A DNA stretch of 64,000 nt from an uncultured Deferribacteres bacterium (GCA_913009825.1 CAJVYQ010000022.1:3870-67869), one strand, 5' to 3'; positions 6,631 to 37,140 are shown, numbered from the stretch's first letter. Numbers and translations: made by a program. Notes: generated by a model not told the origin, from the letters alone.

Positions 6631-6757
6631 GATTAGTGTGGTGGCTTCTTGCAATCCGGAACGTCTTCCTTATTTAAAACTTTTGTGATAGTTAAATTAA
6701 CCTCTGCTATTTTACCCGGCGCACCACACTAATCCCTTATTCGTTACTAATCCCTTA
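6631..6757. repeat. 14-bp inverted repeat (GGATTAGTGTGGTG / CACCACACTAATCC) followed by a tandem 18-bp direct repeat (ACTAATCCCTTATTCGTT x2)
   Basis: Read directly from sequence: arms at 6631-6644 and 6722-6735; the tandem repeat lies at about 6720-6757. Confidence 0.5.
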
Positions 6758-6781
6758 TTCGTTTATGTTGCTAATTTATAA

Positions 6782-14480: not shown

Positions 14481-15851
14481 TCAACCGACCATCAGGTTCT
14501 CTTTTGCGTAGCGGTAGGGTAATTTTGTCCCCCGCTCTCCGGTTATTGCCATCGCCAGGGTTATGGGCCCCAGGCGCCCGATATACATCAACAGAACCAA
14601 TAAAATACGTCCCGTGTTGGAGAAATCCGCGGTAATACCGGTGGAAAGCCCAACCGTACCGAAAGCCGAAACCACTTCAAACAGAATTTCCAGAAAACTT
14701 CCTTTGGTTTGAAGGTGGGAAAGTCCGCCCACTTCGGTAAACAACAGGATAAGCGTAAACATCGCAATTATGATGAAAGAAAACGCACCGATGGATACTG
14801 CTTTTGAAATTACATCCTGGTCGATGCGGCGATGGAACAGGTGAACATCCTCCCGGTTTCTGAATCTGGCCGCAACCATGGCCGTAAGTACGGCAAACGA
14901 AGTGGTTTTCATGCCGCCGCCGCAGGAAGCGGGAGAAGCGCCGATAAGCATCAGCATGGAAATTAGGAACAGGGAAGAATTGGAAACAGCGCCGATGTCC
15001 ACCGTATTAAATCCCGCGGTTCGACTGGTAACAGATTGAAATAAAGCCGTGAGAATTCTCGAACTCCATGGTAACAGCTGTAACCGGTTAAAAAAATCAA
15101 ACACAAAAAACAGCACAGCACCGGCTATGACCAACCAAAAACTGGTGTGTAAAACCACACGGGTGTGAAAACTGAACTGTGACCGGGCCATTGTCCTTTT
15201 GGTTCTCAGTTTTTTGTACAGGTCGAAAAGAACAATAAAACCAACGCCGCCCAAAAGGATCAGGATAATTGTTGTGAAATTGATAATAAAATCACCCTGG
15301 TAACGTACAAAGCTGTCCGGGAACAGGGAAAAACCGGCATTGCAGAACGCCGAGATAGAATGAAAAACCGAAAAATAAAGCGCTTTGCCACCGGGAAAAT
15401 CTTTGGAGAAGCGCAAAAAATAGAAAAGAACCCCAACCGACTCGATCACAATAGTGACGCCAAAAACTGATTTGAGCAGAGAAGCTAAATCTTTCACCGG
15501 CTGCTGACTGAGTGTTTGCTGCAATAATTCCCGGTCACGGATGCTGAATCTTTTCGAAATCAAAAAAATAAAAAATGTGGAAAAAGTCATAATACCCAAC
15601 CCGCCGATCTGGATCAGGGACATGATTACAATCTGGCCAAAAAGAGTAAGTTTTGCGCTGATATCGATGACGGTCAGGCCGGTCACGCAAGTTGCCGATG
15701 TGGCAGAGAACAACGCTTCGATGAAGGAGAGCGGGTTACCTGCCGCGGCATACGGCAATTTTAACAGCGCCGTGCCCAACAAAATGATTGTTGCAAAACT
15801 GAACAGAAGCAACTGTGTCGGTTTGAGCTTTCCCATCGCGTCAATTACCAC
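14481..15851 (-). CDS. trkH: K+ uptake system membrane subunit (TrkH/KtrB)
   Basis: Multi-pass membrane protein with repeated pore-loop glycine motifs (QIGGLG, NAGFS, GASPASCGGG, TVGLSTG). Confidence 0.85.
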   Translation of the reverse strand: MVIDAMGKLKPTQLLLFSFATIILLGTALLKLPYAAAGNPLSFIEALFSATSATCVTGLTVIDISAKLTLFGQIVIMSLIQIGGLGIMTFSTFFIFLISKRFSIRDRELLQQTLSQQPVKDLASLLKSVFGVTIVIESVGVLFYFLRFSKDFPGGKALYFSVFHSISAFCNAGFSLFPDSFVRYQGDFIINFTTIILILLGGVGFIVLFDLYKKLRTKRTMARSQFSFHTRVVLHTSFWLVIAGAVLFFVFDFFNRLQLLPWSSRILTALFQSVTSRTAGFNTVDIGAVSNSSLFLISMLMLIGASPASCGGGMKTTSFAVLTAMVAARFRNREDVHLFHRRIDQDVISKAVSIGAFSFIIIAMFTLILLFTEVGGLSHLQTKGSFLEILFEVVSAFGTVGLSTGITADFSNTGRILLVLLMYIGRLGPITLAMAITGERGTKLPYRYAKENLMVG

Positions 15852-16875
15852 TCATCAATACACTTACCGGACGCAGCGCCGGGAAATTGGCGGTAACAAT
15901 TTTGATAGTTGCCGCGATGGGAACAGCCAAAATCATGCCTACAATTCCCCACAGAAAACCCCAGAAAATCAAAAACAGGATGACTACTAACGGACTCAAA
16001 TCCAGGCTCTTGCCCATAAATTTAGGTTCGATAATATTGCCCATGGCCATTTGTACCAGCAGCAGCAGTACTGTAATCCACAGCGGGCGGAGGAATGAAT
16101 CAAACTGAAGAAAAGCTACCAAAATGGGTGGTGCCGTGGCAATAATTGACCCGATGTTGGGAATGTAATTCAGGAGAAAGGTCAGCATTCCCCAGACAAC
16201 GGCGAAGTCCACACCAAAAACAAGCAGGATGATGGTGGCGATCAGACCGGTTGCCAGACTGATCAGCGTTTTAGTGATCAGGTATTTTTGAATTTGGTCG
16301 TTGATGTTTTCCATGGCATCACGGATTTGCTGCGATCTTTCCCCTTCAAAAGCTCTTTCAATCCGGCCAACCATATATTCTTTGCCTACCAGGAGGTAAA
16401 CCATAAAAAGCAGCACAATAAAAACATTGCCCAAAAAATTGAAAAAAGAACCGATGCCGCTGGATACAATCGACGGCAGGGACAGGTCTTTGATTGCCGT
16501 AGTCCAATCGATCTCCTTTATTCTTGCGTTCAGTTCCTCCATGGGCATATCAAACATAGTAAGGACATTTTGAAAAATATTCACAAATTTAGTCTCATAT
16601 TTGGGCAGCTCGTCGGCAAAAGAGGTAATGCTGGTGTAAACCAGCAATCCAAGCAAAAACAGAAAGCTGAAGGTTAGAATCAACACCAAAAGAAGGGCAA
16701 GCGATTTGGGGATTTTTATTCCCCGCAGCCAGCGCATGATCGGCTCCAGCAAAATGGACAGGAAAATGGCCACGAAAAACGGTTTGAGAATACTCTGCAA
16801 AAAATAGCAGATGACACCTACCGCTACCATTGCCAATATTCCCAACAAAAACAGCACGGATTTAGATTGATTCAT
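15841..16875 (-). CDS. AI-2E family transporter (PerM/YhhT-like)
   Basis: Eight predicted TM segments and conserved C-terminal region FWGFLWGIVGMILAVPIAATIKIV. Confidence 0.8.
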   Translation of the reverse strand: MNQSKSVLFLLGILAMVAVGVICYFLQSILKPFFVAIFLSILLEPIMRWLRGIKIPKSLALLLVLILTFSFLFLLGLLVYTSITSFADELPKYETKFVNIFQNVLTMFDMPMEELNARIKEIDWTTAIKDLSLPSIVSSGIGSFFNFLGNVFIVLLFMVYLLVGKEYMVGRIERAFEGERSQQIRDAMENINDQIQKYLITKTLISLATGLIATIILLVFGVDFAVVWGMLTFLLNYIPNIGSIIATAPPILVAFLQFDSFLRPLWITVLLLLVQMAMGNIIEPKFMGKSLDLSPLVVILFLIFWGFLWGIVGMILAVPIAATIKIVTANFPALRPVSVLMSGN

Positions 16876-17223: not shown

Positions 17224-19587
17224 TCAGGATTCCATTTTCTTGCGTAATTCCATGGTTTTTTCGTAAAATTCCACCAAGGTTAATTTTCTGAGAAAGCATA
17301 AACCATGAGTAGCGCGCAGCCGCGGATGAGTATTTTCGTTGAAGAAATCCCGTCCAACGCAGGTTTTGACGGCCAGAAATTGATCCGACTGGATCTTCTG
17401 CGCCAGCCGGGAAAACGGCCCGTCATATTCATAACTGGGAAAGGAAGCGTCTTTTTGTGAGCCGAAACAGTTGCGAAAAGATTCATTCAAAATCGAAGTG
17501 GAATTGAGGGAAACCGGGACAAAAATATTCGCTTCGGACGGGTCAAACCGGTACCAGACATTCCGGTATCCCCACACTTCAAGATCGCTCCGTCCGCTCT
17601 CTTTTTCATAAATTTTCAACGCTTCGCTGATTGTCTGCATCACTTTGTAATGGGTGTCCGGGCCGCTGCCTTCCGGATCGAAAGCGAGGGTGACGATATC
17701 GGGGCGAATTTTTTCCAACTGTTGCAAAACCGGTTTCACATCCCGCTCAATTTCCGGTTCTTCCGTAAAAATTTCACCTTTGTAAAAACCAAGCCGCAAA
17801 TGATTTACCGAACTGGAGTTGAAACCAAAATGGTTCCACAGCAAATCCGCTTCCCATTCACGGGTCATTCCTTTTAACTGCTGGATATAGGTTAAATCTT
17901 TTTTACCCGGATACTGAGTGCGAAAATAGTTGATCAACTCGTTGATGCGGTCTTTCAGGTGGTGGATGCTGTCTTCTTCGAACAGAAAGATGATATTCCT
18001 CAGTGTTCTGCGAGCAAGCGCTTCATTTTTCATGGTGCGGCTGCGAGCGGCAATACCATCCAAATATTGGTAAACATCCCGGTTACGGCCGTTGTCATTC
18101 AATGGATTGAAATAATCTTCTTCCATCATTTGCCGGAAATCGGGTGTGTCGATGTGGCTGAGAAGAATTTCCAGTAAATTCAGAATGTATTTATTCGTGA
18201 CGGCATTGAAACCGCTGGTCATATAGGTGAAATAGTGTTTGTTCAATGGAGTTCTGACCAGGTGAAAAATGAACGGTAAATAGCCCAACATGATATCGTC
18301 ATGGTGCGGCGCGGTATGCATAAAAATTTTATTTTCGATATTGGCCAGCCCCGCTTCAATTTTTTCTTTCAGGCTGTAGACCACTTTGGCAAGTAGTTGC
18401 TGATAATTTTCTCCGGTTTTTTGCAACAGGGCTTTGGCGAAGCGGTTGCCGTTAAAATCGGCACGATTCAAACGGTTCAACCGTTTCCGTTTCTGAAGAG
18501 CAAGATCGATAATCACCTTCTCCGTCTGTTCATCTGTAACAGTTCCTGTGCTCTTGAAATCTTCGTAATTTCTCTCTACCAATCCCTTTGCAGCGCCTTT
18601 GGTTAAATAGAACCGGGCGTTTTCCAGATCCTGCAAAGTGGATGCAGGATACAAATTATCCTTTTCGCTCTGGATTGCCCGGGCCACAATTTTTGCTTTG
18701 GCCTCGCCGGCCGCTATGATGATGGCCACAGCATCCTTGTTGTAAGTAATAGTAGACAGGCCGATGCTGATAACCAATCGGTTTTTTGCCACTTCGATGC
18801 CGCCCAGGTCCGATGCGGCCGCAGCCTGAGTTTCATAGTTGGTTCGGGTTAAGCGGGTGGTGGAATAAAGGTCGGAACCACGAACATTGAAAGCGACGTG
18901 GCCGTCCGGGCCGATACCGCCCAGAAAAAATCCGATGCCGCCCATTGCACGTATCCCGGTCTCGTATACGGTACAGAACCGATCCACCGCTTCAATCACC
19001 GCCTTTTGTCTGCGTTCCCGGCTGTTCGCCGGATGTGTGGTTCGCAGACTCAAATCAACTTTGCCTTCCGGGAAAATGTCCGTTAGTCTCATTCCAACCG
19101 GTGTACCCAAATTCCAACAATTGATGAGCAGCGCTTTGTCCGGATCCAGGCCAAAACCATCGATGTAAAATTTATTTACGTAATAGTAAAAGCTGTTGTG
19201 CTGCTGCGGATTGATAGGATAAAATTCATCGATCTGCACAAAATGGAAACTTTTCATGTCCGGTTTGATTTCCGGATCGACTCCGTTTTCCTGCAGATCT
19301 TTTTTGATTTCCGGTAAACTCCACTTGTTCAGATAATAAGTAACCCACTTGATGAAATGTTCCGGTGTTTTTCCTGTAGGCAGAGAGATGACGCCGCCGG
19401 GATTGTTTTGTACCCATTCGATGAATCGCAGAGCTGTCAATTTACCCAACAGCGGGAAGTTTTCCACCTCGATGATTTTTATTTTTTCCGTTGGCAGGTA
19501 AACTATTTTTCGATTTGAGTGTTTTAAGGCGACCGCCTCCACCTGAGATTCTTCTTTGCCCTTTTTTGTTTTACTGCCGGGACTCAT
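17224..19587 (-). CDS. nagB: Glucosamine-6-phosphate deaminase (NagB domain) fused to an LmbE/PIG-L-like deacetylase domain
   Basis: N-terminal half has NagB motifs (GGIGPDGHVAFN); C-terminal half has an LmbE-like HHDD motif (APHHDDIMLGY). 787 aa. Confidence 0.75.
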   Translation of the reverse strand: MSPGSKTKKGKEESQVEAVALKHSNRKIVYLPTEKIKIIEVENFPLLGKLTALRFIEWVQNNPGGVISLPTGKTPEHFIKWVTYYLNKWSLPEIKKDLQENGVDPEIKPDMKSFHFVQIDEFYPINPQQHNSFYYYVNKFYIDGFGLDPDKALLINCWNLGTPVGMRLTDIFPEGKVDLSLRTTHPANSRERRQKAVIEAVDRFCTVYETGIRAMGGIGFFLGGIGPDGHVAFNVRGSDLYSTTRLTRTNYETQAAAASDLGGIEVAKNRLVISIGLSTITYNKDAVAIIIAAGEAKAKIVARAIQSEKDNLYPASTLQDLENARFYLTKGAAKGLVERNYEDFKSTGTVTDEQTEKVIIDLALQKRKRLNRLNRADFNGNRFAKALLQKTGENYQQLLAKVVYSLKEKIEAGLANIENKIFMHTAPHHDDIMLGYLPFIFHLVRTPLNKHYFTYMTSGFNAVTNKYILNLLEILLSHIDTPDFRQMMEEDYFNPLNDNGRNRDVYQYLDGIAARSRTMKNEALARRTLRNIIFLFEEDSIHHLKDRINELINYFRTQYPGKKDLTYIQQLKGMTREWEADLLWNHFGFNSSSVNHLRLGFYKGEIFTEEPEIERDVKPVLQQLEKIRPDIVTLAFDPEGSGPDTHYKVMQTISEALKIYEKESGRSDLEVWGYRNVWYRFDPSEANIFVPVSLNSTSILNESFRNCFGSQKDASFPSYEYDGPFSRLAQKIQSDQFLAVKTCVGRDFFNENTHPRLRATHGLCFLRKLTLVEFYEKTMELRKKMES

Positions 19588-20183: not shown

Positions 20184-20287
20184 AGTTAATCAACAGAATC
20201 ATTAATGGTTCAGAAAAAGAGAAAGACTGAAAATTGGAAAAATACCGGCGATGAATGGTTCACCGCCGGTATTCCTTGTTTGTTAAA

Positions 20288-21403
20288 TTAGGAAAGGATA
20301 TCTTCGACCGGAGTTAATTCCATATTAAAAGCTTCTGCAACGCCGGCATACGTTATTTTTCCCAAAACAACGTTGGCGCCTTTTTTGATCTCTTCATTTT
20401 CCAGAATCGCAGTTTTATAACCCTTGTCGGCTATTTCCACGGCATACGGCAGTGTGGCATTTGTCAACGCGATGGTGGACGTTCTGGGCACCGCGCCAGG
20501 CATATTTGCAACACAATAATGAATCACGCCGTCCACTTCAAAAATAGGATCCTGGTGTGTTGTCGGATGGGATGTTGCGACGGAACCGCCCTGGTCGATG
20601 GCGACATCCACAATTACGGCGCCTTTTTTCATCAGCTTTAACATATCTTTTGTGATCATCTTGGGTGCTTTTGCACCGGGGATGAGTACGCTGCCGACAA
20701 CCAGGTCGGCTGTTTTTAGTAACTCGCGCACATTATGAGAATTGGACATCATGGAAATCACATTTTTCGGCATCACATCGTTGAGGTAACGCAACCGTTC
20801 CAGGCTGATATCCAGAATATAAACTTTGGCGCCCAGACCGGCAGCCATTTTTGCGGCATTGGTGCCGACAACGCCGCCGCCGAGGACAACAACCGTGGCA
20901 GGTTCAACGCCGGGAACACCGCCCAACAGAACGCCGTAACCGCCGTAGGTTTTTTCCAGGTATTTCGCGCCTTCCTGTGCTGCCATTCTGCCGGCAACTT
21001 CGCTCATGGGCGTTAACAGAGGTAAATGGCCATTCTCCTGTTCGACGGTTTCGTAGGTAATGGCAATACAGTTTGATTTGATCATGGCATTGGTCAGTTC
21101 TTCCGAAGCGGCAAAGTGAAAATAAGTAAACAGAATCTGGCCTTCTCTGATTAAACCGTATTCCTGCGGCAGCGGTTCTTTTACTTTCATAATCATATCT
21201 GAAATTTCATACACTTCTTTGGCAGATGAGATAATTTCCGCTCCCGCTTCTTTGTACATTTCATCATCAAAACCGCTGCCGACTCCTGCATTGGTTTCCA
21301 CAACCACCCTGTGACCATGGGCAATCAGCGTTTCCACACCAACCGGCAGCAGGGCAACCCTGTTTTCGCTCGGTTTGATCTCTCTCAACAGTCCAACAAT
21401 CAT
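20288..21403 (-). CDS. ald: Alanine dehydrogenase
   Basis: AlaDH/PNT family motifs (MIVGLLREIKPSENRVAL; NAD-binding VVVLGGGVVGTNAAKMAAGLGAKV). Start set at the ATG giving MIVGLL; the track ORF begins 7 codons upstream. Confidence 0.85.
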   Translation of the reverse strand: MIVGLLREIKPSENRVALLPVGVETLIAHGHRVVVETNAGVGSGFDDEMYKEAGAEIISSAKEVYEISDMIMKVKEPLPQEYGLIREGQILFTYFHFAASEELTNAMIKSNCIAITYETVEQENGHLPLLTPMSEVAGRMAAQEGAKYLEKTYGGYGVLLGGVPGVEPATVVVLGGGVVGTNAAKMAAGLGAKVYILDISLERLRYLNDVMPKNVISMMSNSHNVRELLKTADLVVGSVLIPGAKAPKMITKDMLKLMKKGAVIVDVAIDQGGSVATSHPTTHQDPIFEVDGVIHYCVANMPGAVPRTSTIALTNATLPYAVEIADKGYKTAILENEEIKKGANVVLGKITYAGVAEAFNMELTPVEDILS

Positions 21404-21602
21404 TTTTTCCTCCTTACATGACATTAAGTGAAGATCGTCTTATCCCCACCATTTATTTTTTCTTAGTTCTCACTTTTACTGCTCTTCATTTAAAAAATTT
21501 AATATAGATAATTTTATACAGCTAAACAAGTCAATTCGGCAAATCACAGAAACCCGGAAAGATTTTTTTAAGAGAAGAAACTGAATTTAGCTACTCTTTT
21601 TT

Positions 21603-22493
21603 TCAACGTAAAAACAAAATAGCCACACCGGAAACGGTCAGAACCGTGCCGGAGATTGCCCGAAAGCTAAATCTCGTTCCGTGAATCTTCATTTCGAGGG
21701 GAATGATAAACACCGGCATGAGCGACATCAGTGTAGCGGCCACACCGGTATTTGTATGTTTAATGGCAACCATGGATAACCAAACTCCCAAAAACGGGCC
21801 GAAGAAAGTGCCGCCCAATAAAAACAGGACAGCCCGGCCTTTATCACGGAATAGTTTCACCGGATTTTGTATTTTTCCCATCAAAACCGCTGCCGGCCAG
21901 ATAAACAGCGTTGCCGCCGCCATGCGAATGACCGTAGCTAAAAGCGGATTGATCTCCATTTGCAAAGCTGACTTTGCAATGACCAATCCGATTGCCTGTC
22001 CCAGAGCGGCAAATAATGCGAAGACAACTCCCGGAATTGAAATAGTTTGCGCATGATTTTGATGGTCGGATTTCTTTTCTAACAGAACGAGAAAAACACC
22101 CGATATGGTTACCCCGATACCCGCGGCAGCTATAAAACTTACGCTCTCATGTAAAAATAAAAAGGCAATGATGGCCGCCATGGCGGGTGAGAGTGAAAAA
22201 ACCAGCAGCGCAAGGCGTGCGCCAAGATGAACAAAAGCTTCAAAAAGAAAACTATCTCCGGCCGCCAACCCGATAACCCCGCTTAAGGCCAGCATCCATA
22301 TCTGAAAACGGGTCGCGGTAAAATCGCCAAATAACAGCAGATAAGAACTGAATAACAGAATTAATGCCAGCGGGATGCGCAGCAGATTCACCTGAAATGA
22401 ACCAACCCGTTGCGAGGCGGCCGAAAAGAACATGGCTGTGAATGTCCAGGAAACGGAAGTTGTCAGTGCGGCGATTTCACCAAGGCAGGGCAT
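21603..22493 (-). CDS. EamA/DMT-superfamily transporter
   Basis: Ten hydrophobic segments in two EamA-like halves; 10 bp downstream of the Hsp70-like gene on the same strand. Confidence 0.7.
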   Translation of the reverse strand: MPCLGEIAALTTSVSWTFTAMFFSAASQRVGSFQVNLLRIPLALILLFSSYLLLFGDFTATRFQIWMLALSGVIGLAAGDSFLFEAFVHLGARLALLVFSLSPAMAAIIAFLFLHESVSFIAAAGIGVTISGVFLVLLEKKSDHQNHAQTISIPGVVFALFAALGQAIGLVIAKSALQMEINPLLATVIRMAAATLFIWPAAVLMGKIQNPVKLFRDKGRAVLFLLGGTFFGPFLGVWLSMVAIKHTNTGVAATLMSLMPVFIIPLEMKIHGTRFSFRAISGTVLTVSGVAILFLR

Positions 22494-22503: not shown

Positions 22504-24207
22504 TTATTCCAACTCGAACAATTTGTCTAATAGTTTTTCTTTTAGATTTTCTAAATCGTCCGGGTTATTTTTCCGCACGGCATTTTTTATCTTTGCAATT
22601 AACATTTCCAACCGGTCTTTGTCATCACCATCCTGCATTTCTGCCGTCAGCTTTTGTGCCTTATTGATCAGTGTAGTGATTGCGCTGTCGGAAGAGAGAC
22701 CCATGGACAGAATTTTATTCCTGGCTTCCTCTTTTTCGGTTTCCGAAAGTTTGATTTGTGACGTTTTAACGGTGATCTGTTCCTTTTTGCCGCTATCCTT
22801 ATGTGTGGCGGAAACATGAAGGATACCGTTTATATCCAGATCGAACCGGACAATTAGCTCCGCCGGTTTATCATCCAAAGACACGGGGATGTTTTCAAAA
22901 ACAAAAGAACCAAGCAAAATGTTTTTGGATGCTGTTTTATGTTCGCCCTGAAATACATCGATTTCCACCTTAGTTTGCAAAGGGTGCATCGTATAATAAA
23001 CTTCCGATTTAGTAACCGGAATAACGGTATTTTTGCGTAGAATGACGCTGTAACGATCCTCCCGAATATTGCCAAATTCCACTTCAACCACTTCGATGCC
23101 AAGAGAGTAAGGCGTAACATCTACAAGGATTGAGTCCACATTTTCCCCGGCAATGATGGCTGCCTGAATCGCTGCGCCGATGGCCACACATTCATCCGGG
23201 TTGATTTCCGAATGCAGTTCCTTCTCCATCATCTCTTTCACAACTTCTGCAACCAAAGGAATTCTGGTTGATCCGCCTACCATGAGCACTTTTTCAATCG
23301 CCTCCGGTTTCAATTCGGAATCATCCAACGCTGTTTTGATGGAATCAAGCGTGGAACGAACGAGGGGATCGATCATATCATTGAATGAATTGCGGGAAAA
23401 TTCCGTATTAATATGGAGAGATTTGTTTTTTCTTTTCGCGATAAATTCTTCCACAATTTGCGTAAAAGGCTGATCGGAAAGGCTGATTTTTGCTTCTTCG
23501 GCCGCTCTGTTAAGCCTGGCGAAAGATTTCATATCCCCGCTCAGATCGATGTTATGAGTTTGTTCGAAATCCCTGATCAGAAATTCAACAATTTTAGCGT
23601 CAAAATCGTCACCGCCCAGGTGGTTGTTGCCGTGGCTCGCCCGCACTTCAACAATACCCGAATTAATTTCAACAACCGAAACATCAAAAGTACCGCCGCC
23701 CAAATCATAAACCATAACAAGCTGATCTTCTTCTTTATTAAGACTGTGAGCAAGAGAAGCGGCTGTCGGTTCATTTATAATTCTTACAACTTCCAGGCCG
23801 GCAATTTCCCCGGCATCTTTAGTAGCCTGGCGTTGCGCATCGCTGAAATAGGCCGGAACGGTAATTACAGCTCTTTCAACGGACTCCTCTAAAAAATCTT
23901 CGGCAATTTTTTTCAACCGCCGCAGAATAATGGCAGATATTTCCTGAGGTTTGTATTCTTTGTCGCCCAAAAGGATTGTCTCTGCACTGCCCATCTTTCT
24001 TTTAACCGATTTGACTGTCTTTTCCGGAAAAAGAGTGTACTGGTTTTTTGCCGCCTGTCCGACTAACAGTTCTCCGTCGGCAGAAAGGCCTACCACAGAA
24101 GGCACCAAATGTTGGTCGCCATCCGGAATTATTTGCGGAATACCATCCACCACAACTGCCGCTAATGAATTTGTTGTTCCCAAATCGATGCCGATTATTT
24201 TGCTCAT
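22504..24207 (-). CDS. Hsp70-family ATPase (DnaK paralog, 567 aa, short C-terminal lid)
   Basis: Intact actin-fold motifs: phosphate-1 IGIDLGTTNS, connect-1 VITVPAYFSDAQRQATKDAG, phosphate-2 DLGGGTFDVSVV, adenosine VLMVGGSTRIPLV. Start overlaps the upstream gene by 4 bp. Confidence 0.85.
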   Translation of the reverse strand: MSKIIGIDLGTTNSLAAVVVDGIPQIIPDGDQHLVPSVVGLSADGELLVGQAAKNQYTLFPEKTVKSVKRKMGSAETILLGDKEYKPQEISAIILRRLKKIAEDFLEESVERAVITVPAYFSDAQRQATKDAGEIAGLEVVRIINEPTAASLAHSLNKEEDQLVMVYDLGGGTFDVSVVEINSGIVEVRASHGNNHLGGDDFDAKIVEFLIRDFEQTHNIDLSGDMKSFARLNRAAEEAKISLSDQPFTQIVEEFIAKRKNKSLHINTEFSRNSFNDMIDPLVRSTLDSIKTALDDSELKPEAIEKVLMVGGSTRIPLVAEVVKEMMEKELHSEINPDECVAIGAAIQAAIIAGENVDSILVDVTPYSLGIEVVEVEFGNIREDRYSVILRKNTVIPVTKSEVYYTMHPLQTKVEIDVFQGEHKTASKNILLGSFVFENIPVSLDDKPAELIVRFDLDINGILHVSATHKDSGKKEQITVKTSQIKLSETEKEEARNKILSMGLSSDSAITTLINKAQKLTAEMQDGDDKDRLEMLIAKIKNAVRKNNPDDLENLKEKLLDKLFELE

Positions 24208-25439
24208 AAATTTTTCTCCTGTTGTTTTACGACAATTACCTCTGCATATCTAATTATTTGTTGCCCCTTTTTATACCCTTTCAGGTGCTCTCTGCTGATA
24301 TAGCCTGCGGGAATATCCTGATTGTTCTCAACCCCAACCGCAATATGCTGTTGCGGATCAAATTTTCCCCCAACACTGAGAATCGGTCGGACCCCTTCGT
24401 CTTGCAGCACTTTTAATAAGCGCCGGTAGATCAGTTCAAGCCCTTCCCGCCAGGTTTGAACTGCTTCCGGCAACGCTTCATTCCCGGCATTCCGGGACAA
24501 AAATATTTTTTGCCAGAATTTTTTCTCTTTCTGTGTCGAATCGACCGACGAGGATGAAAGTTCTTGTCCGGGAATGGTTGCCAGCGCTTCGGCAAAACCA
24601 TCCAAAACGGGGAGAAGGTTTTTAATCAATTGCAAGTTTGCCCCCGATTTCAACTCGTTTTTAAGATCCAGCAATTCTTTTACCATTTTTTCCGTACGCT
24701 GAATCCGCCGCTGTAAATCCGGAAAAATTTGGTTGTCCGTCTCCTGTTTTGTTTCAAACAGCATGTTGATTTTGTAAATTTCACGTCCGAATTTCTTCAG
24801 GTTTTTTGCCAGGCCGGAAAGTTCCGTTTGAAAAACCGACAAATCCTGCCCAGATAAAAAAGCGCCGACTCGAATAAGTTCGTCTAACCGCTTATCAAAC
24901 AGCTCCCGGGATTTGTTTGTTATGTTTTCTATTTTATCTTCGTACTGTTGGAACAGGGTCGCGCTGATTTCGGGATGATCCCCGGCAATAAGAAGCATTT
25001 CTTTTTTCAAAGAATCGAACCGATCCCGAAGATAACCGATCGCTGCAGTTGAGGAAAGTAGTGTATCCAGCTTGCGCATTTCCCGGAATACAGTGCCGGA
25101 CGGAGAAGATTTTACTGTCCGGGCTATGTATCGAATCATAGTCAGGGTATTATTTTTTACGATCCGTTTTTTATGGAGGAAATGAAAATACCTGCGGAAT
25201 TTGTATGAAATCGTATTCCTGTGTCGGACGGAAAGCTGCAAGGTTCGTTGATAAAAGAAGTCGTCGAAAAGTTCAACCACTCCGTCATTTTTGAAATCAT
25301 AAATATCCCCGGCAGTAAAAAATGCAGTAAACCGTTCCAATTCGTGTTGATATTCGCAACAGGTTCTCTGAGATATGCCGGTTTTTTGTAATTTTTTCAG
25401 AAATAAAGCAACAGTTAATTGTATTTCCACAACGTACAA
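24204..25439 (-). CDS. GrpE-domain protein with a ~120-aa N-terminal extension and central coiled-coil region
   Basis: C-terminus LPVLDGFAEAL...GGKFDPQQHIAVGVENNQDIPAGYISREHLKGYKKGQQIIRYAEVIV fits the GrpE dimerisation helix and beta-domain. N-terminal ~100 aa loosely resembles a tyrosine-recombinase core-binding (SAM-like) domain (weak, by eye). Confidence 0.65.
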   Translation of the reverse strand: MYVVEIQLTVALFLKKLQKTGISQRTCCEYQHELERFTAFFTAGDIYDFKNDGVVELFDDFFYQRTLQLSVRHRNTISYKFRRYFHFLHKKRIVKNNTLTMIRYIARTVKSSPSGTVFREMRKLDTLLSSTAAIGYLRDRFDSLKKEMLLIAGDHPEISATLFQQYEDKIENITNKSRELFDKRLDELIRVGAFLSGQDLSVFQTELSGLAKNLKKFGREIYKINMLFETKQETDNQIFPDLQRRIQRTEKMVKELLDLKNELKSGANLQLIKNLLPVLDGFAEALATIPGQELSSSSVDSTQKEKKFWQKIFLSRNAGNEALPEAVQTWREGLELIYRRLLKVLQDEGVRPILSVGGKFDPQQHIAVGVENNQDIPAGYISREHLKGYKKGQQIIRYAEVIVVKQQEKNL

Positions 25440-25793
25440 CTACTCTGGTTTTATTGTTGAATAGTCTTCACTGAAATCTGTTTTATATAAATCTGAAAAC
25501 AGATATTCGACGGCGATTAAAAAATCCGTAAAAGTAACTTCCGTAAAATAAGAATCCGGATTGTCAGCCTCCGGTGGCAAAATAAAACTCCCTGCCGGTT
25601 CTTTCAGTATGGAAAAATCGGTTTTAACACGAGCCGGTGTGGATTTAATCTGTTCATAAGCATGCCTGATCGTCTTGAATTTTTCCGGTTCCTTTTCGGG
25701 CGGATATTTTCTAACCAGACGAAAATAAGCTTTCTTGATCTCCGGCGGTGAGGCATTTTGAGAAATATTCAGTGTTTTATACGGATCCATCAA
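25440..25793 (-). CDS. J-domain-like protein with non-canonical PPE in place of HPD
   Basis: DPYKTLNISQNASPPEIKKAYFRLVRKYPPEKEPEKFKTIRHAYEQI aligns to J-domain helices II-III, but the HPD tripeptide position reads PPE. 117 aa; abuts the flanking genes. Confidence 0.65.
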   Translation of the reverse strand: MMDPYKTLNISQNASPPEIKKAYFRLVRKYPPEKEPEKFKTIRHAYEQIKSTPARVKTDFSILKEPAGSFILPPEADNPDSYFTEVTFTDFLIAVEYLFSDLYKTDFSEDYSTIKPE

Positions 25794-28045
25794 TTATCCC
25801 CGGAAAATTGTAATTCTTTGAATAAATCCAACTCTTTACGCATTTTTTTGTGCAGATCAAATACATCTTCAAATCGTTCCGACAGACCGGCTTTTTCAGC
25901 CAGGAATTCCGCGGCCAACTTATGTTCTCTTGATTTTTTCGTCTTGTTCTGCAGCATGTAAACGAAACTCAGATCGATATGAGCATAGATATGGTTTGGT
26001 TCCAGTTTAATACATTTTTTGAAATATTTTTCCGCTTCCGGCAGGTCATCGGCTAAGTATTTTTTGCCAATTTTATAATACCATTCTGCATTTTGGGGAT
26101 CGATTGCAAGCGCTTTTTTAAAATAGCTTTTCGCTTTTCGCCTGGATTTTTCGAAAAGCAACTTTCCCAGTTCAATTAACAGCAGAGGGTCGTTTTTTGC
26201 CAATTTCTCCGCTTTGCTTAAAAAGAAATTCGCTTCCCCGGAATGTTCAAATTCCAGGTACGCCTGACCTGCCTCCATATAAACAACAGGATTATCCGGG
26301 TCGGTTTGGACATAGCTCATGAATAGCGATCGCACGGCTTTCAGGTCATCATATTCCTCTAAATAAAGTTGTGCCAATTCAAAATATCCGCCGAAATCGG
26401 CAGGACTTAATTCGATCTGTTGTTTGTATAATTGAACCGCTTTTTCGATATTGTCTTCTTCAGTCCACTGATTATAAGCCAGTTCATTAATCACCGAAGC
26501 AAGCTGCTTTTTTGCACCAACATTGCCCGGATCAATTTCCAGCACTTTGTTCAGCGTTTCAATTGCTTTGGTCTCATTCCATTCCATCTCCTGAACAAAA
26601 GCCAAATCGAGCATTGCCTGAATATTTTCCGGGTCTTTCAGAAGTAAGTTTTCTAATAACCGGCGCGCGCTGCTCCATTTTTCCAAATCTATGAAAGCTT
26701 CCGCCAATTGAATCTGAATTTGTGAATCATCCGGCTTTAAAGCCGCTAATTTTTGCAATACTTTTAACGAACGGCCGGAATTATTACTATTCTCGTAATT
26801 TTCAATTAGATGCCGGTAGGAAACAGTGAGGAATTCTATCCTTGCTTTGTCATCCGGATGTTTGCGAAGTTCATTTTCATGGAACTGACAAACTTTATTC
26901 CAGTAAATATTGGCTCGTTTCGCGTCCGCCAATTTGTCATAAGCGATAGCTACGTTATGAAACGCATTCAAATCTTCTTTGGCACAAGACAACTGCCACA
27001 TATTAAGCGCTTCCTCCCAGTGATTATTTAGCGCCAGATCGTTTGCCTGCAGAAAACAAACCCGCTCAAGATTTGACAGCGTTGCCTGATGATCCGGTTG
27101 CAAAGATAAAATTGCTCTGAACCATTCTTTGCTCTTTTCCCAATCTTTTTTTCGGGCATACTCCAATCCCTTTCGCCACAAAAGAATCATCAGATTACGG
27201 GAGTAGCGTTCAATAGTAAAACCGTTTTTAAACGCCCGCAGCCAATATTTGTCACACAGATCCCGCTCATTTCTTTTCAGATGAAGCAAACCGGTAAAAT
27301 AATAAAGCAGAGAAGTCAGACGTAATTTGTCATCCCCTTTTATCCTCCGGTAACTCATATCGAACCATGTTTTTGATTCTTCCGTTGAACCCTTTTTAAG
27401 GAATAGCAAACCGGTAAAAAATTGTCCGGTTTTTGTTTGGCGCAGGTTTTCCGGGAATATTTCAAAAGGATGCTGCGCGGTTCCGGCTTTCAATTTATGC
27501 AAAACGGAAAGAATCCCGCTTAAAAAAGGTTCAGCACCCGTTTCGGATAATTCAGATAACTTTTGCGTGTGACCGGATTTAAGATAGGCCATGGCAAGAT
27601 GAAAACCATATCTTTTATTTTCCGGTTCCAGTTCGACGGCCTTGCGATAGGCGTTGCGGGCTTTTTTGTCATTGCCCAAATGTTTATAAGCCAAACCGAG
27701 ATGAAAATAAGTAATGGCCTGATTTTCCTGCAAAGAAATCGCCTGGGAAAGTTCTGCAACAATCAAATGATATTTTTGGGCGACATCCCGGTCACGATAA
27801 TAACCAATTCCGAGGCGAAAATGAGCTTCGGCAAACAATGGCGCAAGTTCGACCGGTCTTTGGTGTGTTGGAATTCTGTTCCATTCACCAACAGCCTTCC
27901 GGAATTTCCCTGCTGCAAAATATTTTTTCCCGGCTGTAAAAAGATGGGAATATTTTCCTTTTAATTGAGCAGCGGTGAAATGATTTCCCGTTCCGCCCGG
28001 TTTATCCGTTTGCGCTTGTTCTTTTTTCTTTTTTTTTCTGCTCAT
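25790..28045 (-). CDS. Large TPR-repeat protein (751 aa) with a lysine-rich N-terminus
   Basis: Many TPR-like 34-residue repeats (recurring W-LG-Y/A-P patterns, e.g. AITYFHLGLAYKHLGNDKKARNAYRKAVELEP). First gene of the four-gene minus-strand operon. Confidence 0.8.
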   Translation of the reverse strand: MSRKKKKKEQAQTDKPGGTGNHFTAAQLKGKYSHLFTAGKKYFAAGKFRKAVGEWNRIPTHQRPVELAPLFAEAHFRLGIGYYRDRDVAQKYHLIVAELSQAISLQENQAITYFHLGLAYKHLGNDKKARNAYRKAVELEPENKRYGFHLAMAYLKSGHTQKLSELSETGAEPFLSGILSVLHKLKAGTAQHPFEIFPENLRQTKTGQFFTGLLFLKKGSTEESKTWFDMSYRRIKGDDKLRLTSLLYYFTGLLHLKRNERDLCDKYWLRAFKNGFTIERYSRNLMILLWRKGLEYARKKDWEKSKEWFRAILSLQPDHQATLSNLERVCFLQANDLALNNHWEEALNMWQLSCAKEDLNAFHNVAIAYDKLADAKRANIYWNKVCQFHENELRKHPDDKARIEFLTVSYRHLIENYENSNNSGRSLKVLQKLAALKPDDSQIQIQLAEAFIDLEKWSSARRLLENLLLKDPENIQAMLDLAFVQEMEWNETKAIETLNKVLEIDPGNVGAKKQLASVINELAYNQWTEEDNIEKAVQLYKQQIELSPADFGGYFELAQLYLEEYDDLKAVRSLFMSYVQTDPDNPVVYMEAGQAYLEFEHSGEANFFLSKAEKLAKNDPLLLIELGKLLFEKSRRKAKSYFKKALAIDPQNAEWYYKIGKKYLADDLPEAEKYFKKCIKLEPNHIYAHIDLSFVYMLQNKTKKSREHKLAAEFLAEKAGLSERFEDVFDLHKKMRKELDLFKELQFSGDN

Positions 28046-28391
28046 AAAATGAGATGACCGGTTTGTAAAAAAAGTGCTGTTTAAAAATAAAAATACTGAA
28101 AAATGTTTTTATCAGTACTAAAAATGTTACCCAAAATCGAGCTGTGAGTTAGCAATTAATATAAAAAATAATTCTCCCTTTAACAATAATATTGTTACGT
28201 TTTTACCACATCGTGCATCACCAGAATAAAGAATGCAAAAAACGCAGCCATCCGGCGATAGCTGTGTAGAAAAATTGAACATTTTGAACTCCCTTTTTGT
28301 ATTGGTAGTTAAATTTATAATTGAAAACAGACGGCATAGTCAAATTTAGCAAACTGTTGCCACAATTTGCAGTCGAAAAAGGAGGTTCAAA

Positions 28392-29166: not shown

Positions 29167-30486
29167 ATGGTTAAAATGAACTGTAAATTTCGTTTTTTAG
29201 CACTACTTACCTTTTTGCTGTTTTTGCCGGTCACAAATTTGATTGGCGCCGAATCGAACGTGCCAAATTACGCAGATGAAGACCGGGAGCCGGATCATCT
29301 GCAGGAAAAAGCGGCAAAGATATTTCTGGATGTGCCCGGTTATTACCAGGATTATATTAAAACGGAAATCCCATTCGTCAATTATGTGCGGGACAGAAAA
29401 CTGGCACAAGTCCATATCATGATGACATCACAACGAACCGGCAGCGGCGGCAATGAATACACGTTTACATTCACCGGATTGAAAAACTTCGCCGCCCTCA
29501 GCGACACAATGAAATATGTTTCGCGTCAGATGGATACACGGGATATGACACGGCAAGGCATGGTCAAAATACTTAAATTAGGTTTGATGCCTTACATTGC
29601 CAAAACACCCCAGGCAAAATATCTCCACATTTCTTACAGAGTAAAATCGAACCCGATGGATGTGATTGATAAATGGAATTTCTGGGTGTTCAATATTAAC
29701 ACCGATGGTAATCTTGACCTGGAGGAGAGTAAGAAAAATTACCGGCTTGGCGGTTCGCTTTCCGCCAACCGTGTTACTCCCAATTGGAAGATGAGTTTTT
29801 CTCTGAACACCCGGTACAATGAAACCAATATCGAGACATCCGAAGGGTCTATTTCAAGTATTACAAGATCGCCCGGTTTCAGGGGGATCATTGTAAAAAG
29901 TTTGGGAGAGCATTGGTCCGTTGGCGGGTACGCCTCGGCCAGGTCATCGGTTTATTCAAACTTGAATTATTCTTACGGATTTGCGCCGGCGCTGGAGTTT
30001 AATGTGTTTCCCTATTCCATTTCAACCCGAAAGGAATTTCGCTTTCTCTATCGACTTGGCTATAACAATCTTCATTATAATGAAGAGACTATTTTTGATA
30101 AAATGAATGAAGCATTATTCAGCGAAAGTTTGTCTTCTACTCTGGAGATCAAAGAGAAATGGGGTTCGACCTCTACCACGTTGAGAGGTTCCCATTTTTT
30201 TCATGATTTCAGCAAAAACAAATTAGAAATGTCCGGCAATTTAAACATCCGGCTATTCGAAGGAATTTCAATCGATATAAGCGGTAGTATTTCCCGGGTT
30301 CACGACCAGTTGTCATTACCCAAAAAAGGCGCGACGTTGGAAGAAGTTCTGTTGCGCCGGAAACAATTGGCTTCCGAATGGGGAGTATCGACAAGAATCG
30401 GCTTGCGCTACACATTCGGTTCAATTTACAGCAATGTGGTAAATCCGCGTTTCGGTTCCGGCGGCAGGCATAGAAGATACTATTGA
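29167..30486 (+). CDS. Hypothetical exported protein, possible outer-membrane beta-barrel
   Basis: Signal peptide; alternating hydrophobic beta-strand patterns; C-terminal aromatic residues. No known catalytic motif. Confidence 0.55.
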   Translation: MVKMNCKFRFLALLTFLLFLPVTNLIGAESNVPNYADEDREPDHLQEKAAKIFLDVPGYYQDYIKTEIPFVNYVRDRKLAQVHIMMTSQRTGSGGNEYTFTFTGLKNFAALSDTMKYVSRQMDTRDMTRQGMVKILKLGLMPYIAKTPQAKYLHISYRVKSNPMDVIDKWNFWVFNINTDGNLDLEESKKNYRLGGSLSANRVTPNWKMSFSLNTRYNETNIETSEGSISSITRSPGFRGIIVKSLGEHWSVGGYASARSSVYSNLNYSYGFAPALEFNVFPYSISTRKEFRFLYRLGYNNLHYNEETIFDKMNEALFSESLSSTLEIKEKWGSTSTTLRGSHFFHDFSKNKLEMSGNLNIRLFEGISIDISGSISRVHDQLSLPKKGATLEEVLLRRKQLASEWGVSTRIGLRYTFGSIYSNVVNPRFGSGGRHRRYY

Positions 30487-31273: not shown

Positions 31274-32026
31274 ATGAAGAGATTCATCATTTTAAACATT
31301 GCCATCGTTTTGGGGGCTATGTTTCTTATGGGTTCTGCCTTCGCTCAGGAAGAAAATTATATTGCATCAGGTGATTCTGCCTGGAAGAAATTTGATAATC
31401 AGGCCGCTCTGGAGTACTATAAAGATGCGTTGGCGAATGATACCGGAAATTATGATGCGCTGTGGCGAATCAGCCGCGCTTATGTGGATATTGGCGAACA
31501 TCTGCCTAAAAATCAGCAACTTGGCTATTACGAAAAAGCGCGGTTGTTTGCCGACAGCGCCGTAACAGTTAATCCCAATAAAAACGAGGGATATACCCGT
31601 CGTGCCATCGCGGTCGGTCGGGTTGCTCTGTTCAAGGGTGTGTTTAAATCGATTGGCCTGGTGAAAAAAGTGAAAGCTGATTGCGAGAAGGCATTGTCCA
31701 TCGATCCCAATGATCAGATAGCCCTGTACGTTTTTGCCCGGTCTCATCAGAAAGTGGCCGATAAATCCAAATTCTTCCGTGTGCCCTTAGGGCTTGGTTG
31801 GGCCAGCAACAAAAAAGCCCGGAAATTGTACGAAAAAGCGATTGCCCTGGAACCGGAATCTGTGATGTTCAATCTGGATTATGCCCGGCTTTTGGTTAAA
31901 ACCAAAAAATATGATGAGGCGAAAAAGGTACTGATTAAATTGCAGAGTTTTCCTATTAAAGATGAAGATGATGAAGAAAACAAAACCGCGGCAAAGAAGC
32001 TACTGGAGGAGATCAAAAATAAATAA
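31274..32026 (+). CDS. Secreted TPR-like repeat protein
   Basis: Signal peptide (MKRFIILNIAIVLGAMFLMGSAFA) followed by TPR-like helical repeats. Confidence 0.65.
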   Translation: MKRFIILNIAIVLGAMFLMGSAFAQEENYIASGDSAWKKFDNQAALEYYKDALANDTGNYDALWRISRAYVDIGEHLPKNQQLGYYEKARLFADSAVTVNPNKNEGYTRRAIAVGRVALFKGVFKSIGLVKKVKADCEKALSIDPNDQIALYVFARSHQKVADKSKFFRVPLGLGWASNKKARKLYEKAIALEPESVMFNLDYARLLVKTKKYDEAKKVLIKLQSFPIKDEDDEENKTAAKKLLEEIKNK

Positions 32027-35440: not shown

Positions 35441-36415
35441 GTGAAAATGAACGATTCGGAAATATTTGACAGTATCATCATTGGCGCCGGGCCGGCGGGG
35501 ATGACCGCTGCTATTTTTGCCCGGACAAAAAACCTGCATGTTCTGATCATGGAAGGAGGAAAGGCCGGAGGTCAGCTCATCAACCTCTATCCTTACAAGC
35601 CGGTTTATAACTATCCGGGTTATGCGCAAATAACCGCAGGCAAACTTGCGCGGCAAATGATTCGCCAGGTACAGCGATTCGATATCCCGATTGTTGAAAA
35701 TTCTCCCGTTCTTGACATCAGAAAATCAGAGAACGGCGATTTTGAAATCTCAGGAAAGCATTCATTGGTAAAAACGAAAACAATCATTCTGGCGAGCGGA
35801 TTGGGTTTAAGCGAACCGAGGAAATTGAATGTCCCCGGTGAGGATGAACTGAAAGGTTGCGGAATTGAATATACAATTGACGATATTGCGAGCTGGGCCG
35901 GAAAGGAGATCGCCGTTATCGGCGGCGGCAACAGCGCCATCGACAATGCCCTGCTTCTGCAGGAGAAAAATGCCGGAGTTACTTTAATCCACCGTTCGCA
36001 TAAATTAAGGGCAGAAGCAGCCAATGTGGAAAAATTACAACAGAACGATGCCCAAATGCTTCTGGGTTGGCAAACCGTCCGTTTCCAAAAAGAAAACGAT
36101 AGTAAAATTTCCATGAAAATGGAAAATAGCGTGAACAAACAAAGCATGTGCCTCACATTTGATAAAATATTGATTAACGCCGGTCTAAAACCGAACACGG
36201 AACTTTTAGAAAAGACAGGTTTGGAAAAAGCGGGCAAACAGATACAGGTAGATACCGAGATGCAGACATCTGTTCCGGGTATCTTCAGCTGCGGCGATGC
36301 TGTGTTCTATCCCGGCAAAGTCCGGTTGATCGTTACAGCCATCGGCGAGGCAGCAACGGCAGTGAACAGCATGCAAAAATATTTGAATCTGAAATACTCA
36401 CATCTGGGAAAATAA
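35441..36415 (+). CDS. Thioredoxin-reductase-like flavoprotein lacking the CxxC redox centre (TrxR-like FNR/YpdA-type)
   Basis: FAD motif IIGAGPAG and NAD(P) motif IAVIGGGNSA present; the position of the TrxR CATCDG disulfide reads TIDDIASWAG. Confidence 0.75.
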   Translation: MKMNDSEIFDSIIIGAGPAGMTAAIFARTKNLHVLIMEGGKAGGQLINLYPYKPVYNYPGYAQITAGKLARQMIRQVQRFDIPIVENSPVLDIRKSENGDFEISGKHSLVKTKTIILASGLGLSEPRKLNVPGEDELKGCGIEYTIDDIASWAGKEIAVIGGGNSAIDNALLLQEKNAGVTLIHRSHKLRAEAANVEKLQQNDAQMLLGWQTVRFQKENDSKISMKMENSVNKQSMCLTFDKILINAGLKPNTELLEKTGLEKAGKQIQVDTEMQTSVPGIFSCGDAVFYPGKVRLIVTAIGEAATAVNSMQKYLNLKYSHLGK

Positions 36416-37140
36416 TGAGACTCCTCATGACAGCTAAATCAAAACTAAACAGAACCTTGCTGATATTATTCCCCCGGCCTAATTTGGGATGGAAAATCAT
36501 CGATTTGTTTTCACAAAACAGATTTCGGACAGTTGCCGTCTTCGATAAGGAAACGACACGGAAAGACTTTGTTTCAATGTTCGACGATACGGTGGGAATA
36601 ATTACAACTGTTCGCCGGCAAACATTTGAATCCGAATTCTGGCAAAATTTGTCCCGGCAAACAATGAATGAAATGCTGGCCGCACCTGTAATTATTTATT
36701 GCGCCGGGCAGGATTTCATGAAAATAAATGTCAAGGGAGCCGGAGAAGAATGGAAAATCGATCACAAAAGCGATCAGCAAAAAAGGTTGACTTTTATCGA
36801 TCAGTTAATGAACCGGTTTAAATCAAAATCGCTGCGATTATGGTTCAATCTGGCTTCCGGCACGAGCGGGAAAGAAAGTGAAGGGGAGGTTTATTGCAAC
36901 ACCCGTTACGGCATGATTGGATTCAATAAAATTTTTGATTTAAATCCGAAATTTGCCAATATTAAAATGGTCAATATTTGCCTGACTTACTTTCATCATC
37001 AGCTCAAAAATGAACCAATGAAGAACTGCGCTTATTGTGCTGCAGAACATTTCCCTGATGCCCTAAAATTCATTCGTGATGAGACCGGTTTGGGAGAATA
37101 TCTGTTGCAGGAAAGTGAAAAATTGATCGACCCTGCGTAA
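36415..37140 (+). CDS. Hypothetical protein, translationally coupled to the TrxR-like flavoprotein
   Basis: Start overlaps the upstream stop (ATAATGA); 241 aa; no confidently recognisable motif. Confidence 0.55.
   Translation: MRLLMTAKSKLNRTLLILFPRPNLGWKIIDLFSQNRFRTVAVFDKETTRKDFVSMFDDTVGIITTVRRQTFESEFWQNLSRQTMNEMLAAPVIIYCAGQDFMKINVKGAGEEWKIDHKSDQQKRLTFIDQLMNRFKSKSLRLWFNLASGTSGKESEGEVYCNTRYGMIGFNKIFDLNPKFANIKMVNICLTYFHHQLKNEPMKNCAYCAAEHFPDALKFIRDETGLGEYLLQESEKLIDPA

Follow-up and report, generated by a model that had tools for sequence, protein, structure and literature searches.

We analyzed a 64,000-nucleotide (nt) stretch of DNA from an uncultured Deferribacteres bacterium (GCA_913009825.1, CAJVYQ010000022.1:3870-67869), here called the window, in which four minus-strand genes at positions 22504 to 28045 encode a TPR protein, a small J-domain protein, a GrpE-domain protein, and an Hsp70. 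A preliminary description, made by a model from the sequence alone, had presented them as a tightly coupled operon supplying a full set of Hsp70-cycle components. The open reading frames (ORFs) and Pfam searches support that description, with all four products assigned to the expected families and none of the frames miscalled, although the start codons of the J and GrpE-like genes had to be adjusted. We argue below that the operon probably encodes a specialized Hsp70 machine of the HscC/DjlC lineage.

The gene order in the 5'-to-3' direction is TPR-J-GrpE-Hsp70, and the ORFs abut or overlap. The leading TPR gene (25790..28045, minus strand) encodes 751 amino acids (aa). Behind it lie, on the same strand, the J-domain gene (25440..25790; 116 aa from an ATG at 25790, or 117 aa from an alternative TTG at 25793), the GrpE-domain gene (24204..25430; 408 aa from a GTG at 25430, or 411 aa from an alternative TTG at 25439), and the Hsp70 gene (22504..24207; 567 aa).

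The GrpE stop and the Hsp70 start share an exact ATGA overlap at 24204-24207, as first reported. A second ATGA, reported at 25790-25793, is not there: the TPR/J junction reads AATTGATGG, and bases 25790-25793 are TTGA. The two genes overlap by 4 nt if the TTG is used and by 1 nt (TGATG) from the ATG at 25790, which is the start favored by homologs and by the database gene call (P0004, 116 aa). The reported adjacency at 25439/25440 holds in that the J stop codon TAG (25440-25442) is directly followed by the TTG at 25439, but the GrpE-like start used by the database copy (P0001) and by homologs is the GTG at 25430, 9 nt past the TTG.

Relationship of the four proteins to known families

The Hsp70 matches the Pfam HSP70 family at 1e-158 and falls under every NCBIfam cutoff for DnaK and HscA, scoring 580.2 bits against a cutoff of 648 for the DnaK equivalog NF001413 and 564.9 against 822.55 bits for TIGR02350. 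A Chloroflexi ortholog scores similarly on the DnaK model (579.7 bits). These values agree with the earlier remark that every part of the operon departs from housekeeping DnaK/DnaJ/GrpE. NCBIfam holds no HscC model; orthologs are named only “Hsp70 family protein” by NCBI and “molecular chaperone DnaK” by the JGI pipelines.

Insertions, deletions (indels), and individual residues were compared in an alignment with Escherichia coli DnaK, HscC, and HscA. Identity to DnaK is 43% in an alignment that ends at residue 483, while identity to HscC is 36% from end to end, lid included, with the two proteins collinear. The helix-B region is deleted and the lid is short, with no tail behind it, whereas canonical DnaK has about 610 to 640 aa, a full helical lid, and a disordered C-terminal tail; the short protein with a reduced lid noticed at the outset is thus borne out. 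HscC has been defined by a length of 550 to 580 aa, a deletion corresponding to DnaK residues 76-101, a 4- to 8-aa insertion in loop L1,2, and a helix-B lid deletion (Mayer 2021, PMC8215388). When this definition was applied to the window Hsp70, the length (567 aa) and all four HscC-type indels (deletions at DnaK 76-101, in the D211 loop, and in helix B, and the insertion in L1,2) were found. The insertion in L1,2 of the substrate-binding domain (SBD)-beta is 8 aa long and has acidic residues at the arch.

In one trait the protein departs from HscC, which is characterized by absence of the subdomain-IIB “GrpE signature” loop and by independence of a nucleotide exchange factor (NEF). The window Hsp70 keeps the whole of this loop, which E. 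coli HscC is without, and a PLHL motif in it is conserved; a GrpE gene recurs in 33 of the 41 loci whose neighborhoods were clustered (see below). The catalytic residues D8, K70, E171, D194, T199, and D201 (DnaK numbering) and the linker are invariant across the clade, as are the J-contact residues R167, N170, T173, E206, and E217. The protein ends in LLDKLFELE-COOH (22507-22533); most orthologs end in ...ELLDLLYELEE-COOH (FELE in the window protein). Rather than forming a disordered tail, these residues probably close the final helix of the lid.

A neighbor-joining tree placed the window Hsp70 clade as a monophyletic group, sister to E. coli HscC together with the Hsp70s linked to the J-TPR fusion proteins described below, and with DnaK outside; because DnaK and HscA are each represented by a single reference, the internal branches are short, and the tree carries no support values, we regard this HscC-side placement as suggestive only. 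One orthologous Hsp70 with 54% identity (P0292) comes from a 1.9-kb contig of a metagenome-assembled genome (MAG) labeled “Candidatus Bathyarchaeia archaeon,” so that either an archaeon acquired the gene horizontally or the contig was binned wrongly.

The J protein matches Pfam DnaJ (PF00226) at 1.1e-11, with 45.1 bits against a gathering threshold of 27.8. Its J-domain occupies residues 1-61 of the 116 and is the only domain that Pfam finds; there is no G/F region, zinc finger, or C-terminal client-binding domain, and the translation has no hydrophobic C-terminal segment. The C-terminal half carries a conserved motif, SDLxKTDFxxDY. The preliminary description gave 117 aa, one more than the homolog-supported ATG allows, but it correctly placed PPE where other J-domains have HPD (25695-25703). 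An AlphaFold2 (AF2) model based on a 30-sequence alignment has a pLDDT of 81, rising to about 90 over residues 1-60, and shows the four helices of a J-domain within residues 3-61, plus one further helix (87-98). The top Foldseek matches of this model in the Protein Data Bank (PDB) are all J-domains (TM scores of 0.66 to 0.79, target normalized; rmsd of 1.2 to 2.3 Å).

A profile built from two of these J proteins retrieved about 34 metagenomic relatives of 111 to 131 aa. All 30 aligned members of this short-J family keep the P-E of the loop, with P, T, S, or N at the position of the His, and the tripeptides of J proteins linked to GrpE genes are PPE (30), SPE (7), TPE (3), and GPE (1). The HPE of E. 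coli DjlB and DjlC has been called “the only replacement tolerated” (PMC13254874; PMC10410713), and these HPE proteins support stimulation of the HscC ATPase (PMC8215388, PMC13254874). The DjlC J-domain reads CHPETDPQGFKALRQAYEE and the window J protein reads KYPPEKEPEKFKTIRHAYEQ. The two align without gaps, whereas DnaJ needs a 6-residue gap, and they have in common a short helix II-III loop and the terminal Glu.

In the GrpE-like protein, Pfam GrpE (PF01025) matches residues 232-405 of the 411-aa ORF at 3.1e-23 (82.7 bits against 25.8), covering profile positions 24-165 of 165; the score lies under all NCBIfam GrpE equivalog cutoffs. This region (about 24225-24746, minus strand) is conserved throughout the clade in our alignment. 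The preliminary description gave the protein an N-terminal extension of about 280 aa. The extension is present, but it is better described as a SAM-like domain of about 100 aa, of the tyrosine recombinase type (about 25131-25430, minus strand), followed by about 100 to 130 aa of predicted long helices that lead into the GrpE region.

Several searches point to the SAM-like assignment: the N terminus gives weak NCBIfam matches to the XerC/XerD N-terminal domain, PF02899 is matched by seven of eight family members (best value, 2.6e-9), and a profile of the domain finds XerD (PDB 1a0p) at 2e-4. Pfam found no integrase catalytic domain in the GrpE-like protein, and we rejected its identification as a tyrosine recombinase, since only the SAM-like domain is of that type and the remainder is helical plus GrpE. 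The same profile also matches the first 104 residues of PDB 9i5v chain 14 (401 aa, labeled ribosome-associated translation inhibitor RaiA; E value of 1.5e-5). The matched part is XerC/XerD-like sequence, and the chain may represent a fused or misannotated integrase-RaiA gene model.

Among 1.84 billion representatives, full-length relatives that combine the SAM-like domain with GrpE account for no more than 5 clusters. When the GrpE-like protein was used in a word-indexed search, it returned a single full-length relative (P0002, 35% identity over the whole length), encoded between the genes for a 114-aa PPE J protein and a 567-aa Hsp70. The fusion is confined to the window's sublineage, and Chloroflexi orthologs have other N termini that are of low complexity or helical. 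An AlphaFold model of the protein from a 2-sequence alignment was unusable (pLDDT of 42).

The TPR protein consists of TPR repeats throughout (matches to 23 TPR-type Pfam families, best value 6e-30), and it begins with MSRKKKKKE (about 28019-28039), in line with the reported poly-Lys N terminus of the 751-aa leading gene product. It appears to be cytosolic, no signal peptide or transmembrane segment being evident on reading the translation. Its orthologs have 600 to 860 aa, and in 36 of the 41 loci their gene immediately precedes the one for J. The N-terminal 50 aa of these proteins are enriched in K/R on average (mean of 4.75 versus 3.2 per best 12-aa window). We rejected a basic N terminus as a universal trait of the family, as at least 6 K/R were reached in 9 of 32 proteins. 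A search for a carboxylate clamp was uninformative, the conserved columns being those of the ordinary TPR consensus (W/A/N-L-A). A second, smaller TPR gene (31274-32026, plus strand; 250 aa) lies on the other strand at a distance of 3 kb upstream of the operon.

Conservation of the operon and its genomic surroundings

A scan with the J profile, in which each GTDB species was represented by one genome, yielded 80 loci, and these were examined by tblastn with the four window proteins. J, GrpE, and Hsp70 genes lie on one strand in 42 of these, nearly all with a TPR gene directly upstream, so the gene order in the window recurs widely. The module, present in at least 42 species-level genomes, occurs mostly in Chloroflexota and also in Calditrichota, Acidobacteriota, Latescibacterota, Spirochaetota, Bacillota, and a Pseudomonadota MAG; the closest operon is in a Calditrichota MAG (58 to 66% identity). 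Metagenomic contigs that encode short-J relatives have the same TPR, J, GrpE, Hsp70 order within unrelated flanks. When ORFs were clustered over 41 loci, the four families recurred in 36 (TPR), 35 (Hsp70), 33 (GrpE), and 29 (J) loci, and the next-best family in 6. The operon is therefore a real unit, far beyond chance, whose order recurs across several phyla.

Variation within the module is instructive. The GrpE gene always precedes the Hsp70 gene, and in one 6.8-Mb genome all junctions overlap and the GrpE protein is a minimal one of 195 aa. In a Chloracidobacterium MAG (L016, 3370-8174) the order is permuted to GrpE-Hsp70-TPR-J with both pairs intact, which suggests two submodules, GrpE plus Hsp70 and TPR plus J. 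A search with the Hsp70 yielded 504 clusters at E values of <1e-150; together with the recurring loci, this indicates that the module is common in environmental bacteria.

Besides the four genes, no conserved client gene was found in cis among the clustered neighbors of the 41 loci. An AI-2E transporter gene lies within 6 to 7 kb of the operon in three loci (window 15841-16875, minus strand; L001 5549-6619; L005 12142-13209) and a GNAT acetyltransferase gene near it in two only, all of them close relatives. These recurrences probably reflect synteny left over among relatives and not a link in function.

The remaining 38 loci have a different, apparently uncharacterized layout, in which a gene for an HscC-like Hsp70 is followed by one for a J(xPE)-TPR fusion protein of 400 to 520 aa, with no adjacent GrpE gene (L025, L032, L034, L039, L043-L048, L051-L053, L055-L056, L058-L062, L064-L069, L071-L073, L075-L076, L078-L082, and L084-L085). 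They occur in Lachnospiraceae and Oscillospiraceae (gut Firmicutes), Nostocales, Planctomycetota, Armatimonadota, and others. Their J tripeptides are PPE (19), SPE (15), TPE (6), and PPD (2), and the linked Hsp70s end in a related motif, LxDLL[FY][ED]LE. One member of the short-J family, P0036, is also fused to TPR repeats. Such “Rosetta stone” fusions, together with the overlapping TPR and J genes of the module, argue for a single cochaperone made up of the TPR protein and the J stub. Two of the six long J proteins scanned, from Roseburia and a Spirochaetaceae member, end in a SEC-C motif (SecA-type zinc), hinting at ribosome, SecB, or membrane targeting of the fusions.

The window itself is a chromosomal segment of a Gram-negative bacterium, with genes for LptD, an OMP beta-barrel protein, TrkAH, YchF, and a DnaE2-like polymerase, and the same DNA also occurs in a marine metagenome (L090). 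A gene for an EamA-family transporter (21603-22493, minus strand) starts 10 nt past the Hsp70 stop and is followed by an alanine dehydrogenase gene (20288-21424, minus strand), after which comes the first terminator-like site (20246-20265). These two genes may be cotranscribed with the operon in the window's genome; the arrangement is also present in L090 and is not conserved at other loci. A candidate sigma-70-like promoter upstream of the TPR gene (28158..28186, minus strand) is weak and based on consensus only (9/12 matches), and promoter and terminator scans of the operon region returned sites no commoner than in shuffled sequence.

Farther away, a 1,055-aa DNA polymerase III alpha-type protein with PHP, finger, HHH, and OB domains (52330-56710, minus strand) is encoded by a gene that overlaps by 38 nt an upstream gene for a 416-aa Y-family (IMS) polymerase-like protein, which looks like a damage-inducible mutagenesis pair of the DnaE2/ImuB type. 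Four ORFs had no Pfam match at 1e-5 or 1e-6: 17224-19587 (minus, 787 aa), 29167-30486 (plus, 439 aa), 57089-58378 (plus, 429 aa), and 36415-37140 (plus, 241 aa); the 787-aa ORF is found downstream of the operon in L090 as well. An Rfam scan of the window returned three tRNAs only. Two 2-kb stretches (2001-4000 and 6001-8000) are low in G+C (37% versus 47 to 51% around them), one near tRNA-Val and the other beside a tRNA-Glu/tRNA-His pair.

Comparison with described Hsp70 systems

The arrangement had not been recognized as a described system in the preliminary description. For the operon as such this stands: we found no description of a TPR-J(xPE)-GrpE-Hsp70 operon in the full-text literature, a search that did not cover Barriot et al. 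(2020, J Mol Biol), where one would most likely appear. The parts are more familiar, however, in that the Hsp70 and the J-domain probably belong to the HscC/DjlC lineage and partnerships of J-domains and TPR proteins with such Hsp70s are common. A described HscC-type system with the same partners had been named as an observation that would refute the preliminary description; this applies only by half, the lineage being HscC-like and the partners (a GrpE, a separate and very large TPR protein, and a stub J protein) differing from those in E. coli. We regard the module as a variant of the HscC/DjlC kind and not a new kind of system.

The E. coli locus (djlB-ybeT-ybeU-djlC-hscC) resembles the module in the indels of its Hsp70 and in a cognate J protein with a short loop ending in Glu, and it too includes a gene for TPR-like (Sel1) repeats, ybeT. 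The differences are as marked. HscC is thought to be NEF free, whereas the module has an obligate GrpE and an Hsp70 with the IIB loop. DjlC has about 480 aa, a C-terminal transmembrane anchor, and HPE, whereas the window J protein is a 116-aa soluble stub and Pro, Ser, or Thr takes the place of the His in the J proteins of the module. Unlike the E. coli locus, the module has a separate TPR protein of 600 to 860 aa that is a translationally coupled, conserved partner. The pairs of Hsp70 and J-TPR fusion share with it the xPE J-domain, the TPR repeats, the HscC-like Hsp70, and the related C-terminal motif, and differ in that the fusions are encoded after the Hsp70, whereas J and TPR in the window are separate genes ahead of GrpE-Hsp70.

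Myxococcus SglK has a GrpE-like partner, GrpS. It has been cited as a case related to cyanobacterial DnaK1/TPR-DnaJ3/GrpE (PMC9239167), which couples type IV pili with the secretion of polysaccharide (McDonald et al. 2022, PMC9239167; PMC12288463). Compared by parts list only, that system has the same components as ours: a dedicated Hsp70 paralog, a J-domain, TPR repeats, and GrpE. In Nostoc, unlike the window, grpE and dnaK1 are together, dnaJ3 is elsewhere, and the GrpE is the single general one of the cell. Neither pil genes nor polysaccharide genes turned up in the 64-kb window. The cyanobacterial system shows that such part sets can serve one cellular process, not general folding, and SglK is a second precedent of this sort.

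Eukaryotic TPR cochaperones (Hop, CHIP, and DNAJC7/DNAJC3) recognize the C-terminal EEVD of Hsp70. The module likewise brings together a TPR protein, a J-domain, and an Hsp70 with a conserved acidic/hydrophobic C-terminal motif (...LLDLLYELEE-COOH), a resemblance that we treat as analogy only.

Proposed function, alternatives, and implications

We postulate that the operon encodes a chromosomal, self-contained, four-gene specialized Hsp70 machine of the HscC/DjlC lineage, which is neither a housekeeping DnaK system nor a defense system, and we put the probability of this reading at roughly two in three. Of the functions first proposed for the operon, a dedicated client-specific chaperone fits best. 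The intact ATPase and J-contact residues, the confident J fold, and the invariant P-E indicate that the machine looks active, and the retained IIB loop with its PLHL motif, along with the GrpE gene ahead of the Hsp70 gene, argues that it uses GrpE.

The cycle could run as follows. The TPR and J proteins, presumably made together from genes with an overlapping stop and start, would act as a split “TPR-J” targeting cochaperone, in which the TPR scaffold would bind a client or a cellular site and possibly also the acidic C-terminal LLDLLYELEE motif of the Hsp70. The J-domain would dock on the Hsp70 at the J-binding face, which is conserved, and the xPE loop would trigger ATP hydrolysis as the HPE loop of DjlC does for HscC. 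The Hsp70 would then clamp its client; by analogy, the enlarged acidic L1,2 loop suggests a preference for basic segments, and HscC is known to prefer positively charged peptides (PMC8215388). The GrpE homolog, translationally coupled to the Hsp70, would release ADP and reset the cycle, and the SAM-like N-terminal domain of the window's sublineage is probably an extra tether to nucleic acid or protein.

Several points weigh against this interpretation. The physical contacts, and the stimulation of an ATPase by a His-less J-domain, are proposals drawn from sequence and fold. His33 of HPD is held to be essential, with only HPE tolerated (PMC13254874), and xPE might not stimulate the ATPase. Assignment to the HscC lineage rests mainly on the shared indels and the type of J-domain, the tree references being few, and the window Hsp70 is far nearer the DnaK models (580 bits, cutoff of 648) than E. 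coli HscC is (385 bits). The C-terminal Hsp70 motif is absent from a minority of orthologs, the basic TPR N terminus is only a trend, and no conserved neighbor points to a client.

The alternative that best survives these points is that the J-like protein is a nonstimulating regulator or decoy comparable to Pam16/Tim16, which would bind the Hsp70 or the TPR protein and trigger no hydrolysis, and the TPR protein is a regulated target or constitutive client of an Hsp70 switch instead of an adaptor. The absence of the HPD His from all GrpE-linked members would fit such a role, given that HPE is the only known tolerated change (PMC13254874), and the often basic N termini of the TPR proteins would make them possible substrates of HscC-type SBDs, which prefer positive charge (PMC8215388). 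Yet the module encodes no second, HPD-bearing J protein, the P-E and its flanks are constrained and the Hsp70 J-contacts invariant, as expected of a working interface, and the closest characterized relative, DjlC, stimulates HscC with its HPE. We therefore consider a decoy role unlikely.

It is considerably harder to see in the locus a housekeeping DnaK/DnaJ/GrpE heat shock operon of a divergent lineage with a TPR gene upstream by chance. Three canonical component types are present, the best NCBIfam matches of the Hsp70 are to DnaK, and the 43% identity to E. coli DnaK and the JGI label point the same way. Against this stand the scores under all DnaK equivalog cutoffs, the short lid without a tail, a J protein lacking HPD as well as the G/F, zinc finger, and client-binding regions, and a TPR gene kept with the other three across phyla. 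No CIRCE element was found within 3 mismatches in the whole 64-kb window, and HrcA/CIRCE heat shock control was rejected for this reason. Orthologous operons occur in genomes of 6 to 6.8 Mb, and a survey saw DnaK-derived paralogs only beside a bona fide DnaK (PMC13580251). This makes a housekeeping operon very unlikely.

The remotest alternative is an antiphage or conflict module, perhaps related to the HSP70, GrpE, and J-/TPR-fused themes of GTPase-centered conflict systems (Kaur et al. 2020, PMC7159879), including those on GAP1-N2 GTPases; its patchy distribution across phyla suggests horizontal transfer, and the TPR protein has a weak PADLOC match to the candidate model PDC-M71B (1e-12), but PADLOC-DB 2.0 gave no match for the Hsp70 or J protein and only a noise-level one for the GrpE-like protein (DruC, E value of 0.005), the 41 loci share no neighboring GTPase, effector, nuclease, protease, or EAD-type domain, and neither a GAP1-N2 GTPase nor an FNIII-repeat protein is adjacent, only the four genes recurring. 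The neighbors are housekeeping genes (TrkAH, alanine dehydrogenase, EamA, YchF, and LptD), and our searches with the J protein returned no plasmid or phage matches; the signalling or defense module raised in the preliminary description thus finds no support, and we rejected a defense system.

Returning to the specialized Hsp70 machine, we offer a bolder and doubtful extension, namely, that it represents an Hsp70 family with His-less xPE J-domains, a TPR partner that reads the acidic LLDLLYELEE C terminus, and a tethering GrpE. If this were true, recognition of LLDLLYELEE would give prokaryotes their own version of the TPR/EEVD principle of eukaryotes, accompanied by a GrpE that tethers a client or nucleic acid.

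Bacterial Hsp70 paralogs are largely unexplored, according to recent reviews (PMC13580251), and large J-protein surveys exclude non-HPD sequences (PMC10410713), so the xPE J family has probably been overlooked systematically. An invariant P-E without the His, beside an Hsp70 with intact J-contacts, speaks for selection rather than decay, and the xPE J protein and its cognate Hsp70 offer a clean pair for biochemistry. The module contradicts the generalization that HscC-type Hsp70s dispense with nucleotide exchange factors. Bacteria commonly have the partnership of TPR, J-domain, and Hsp70, whether fused or split, although it is usually associated with eukaryotes.

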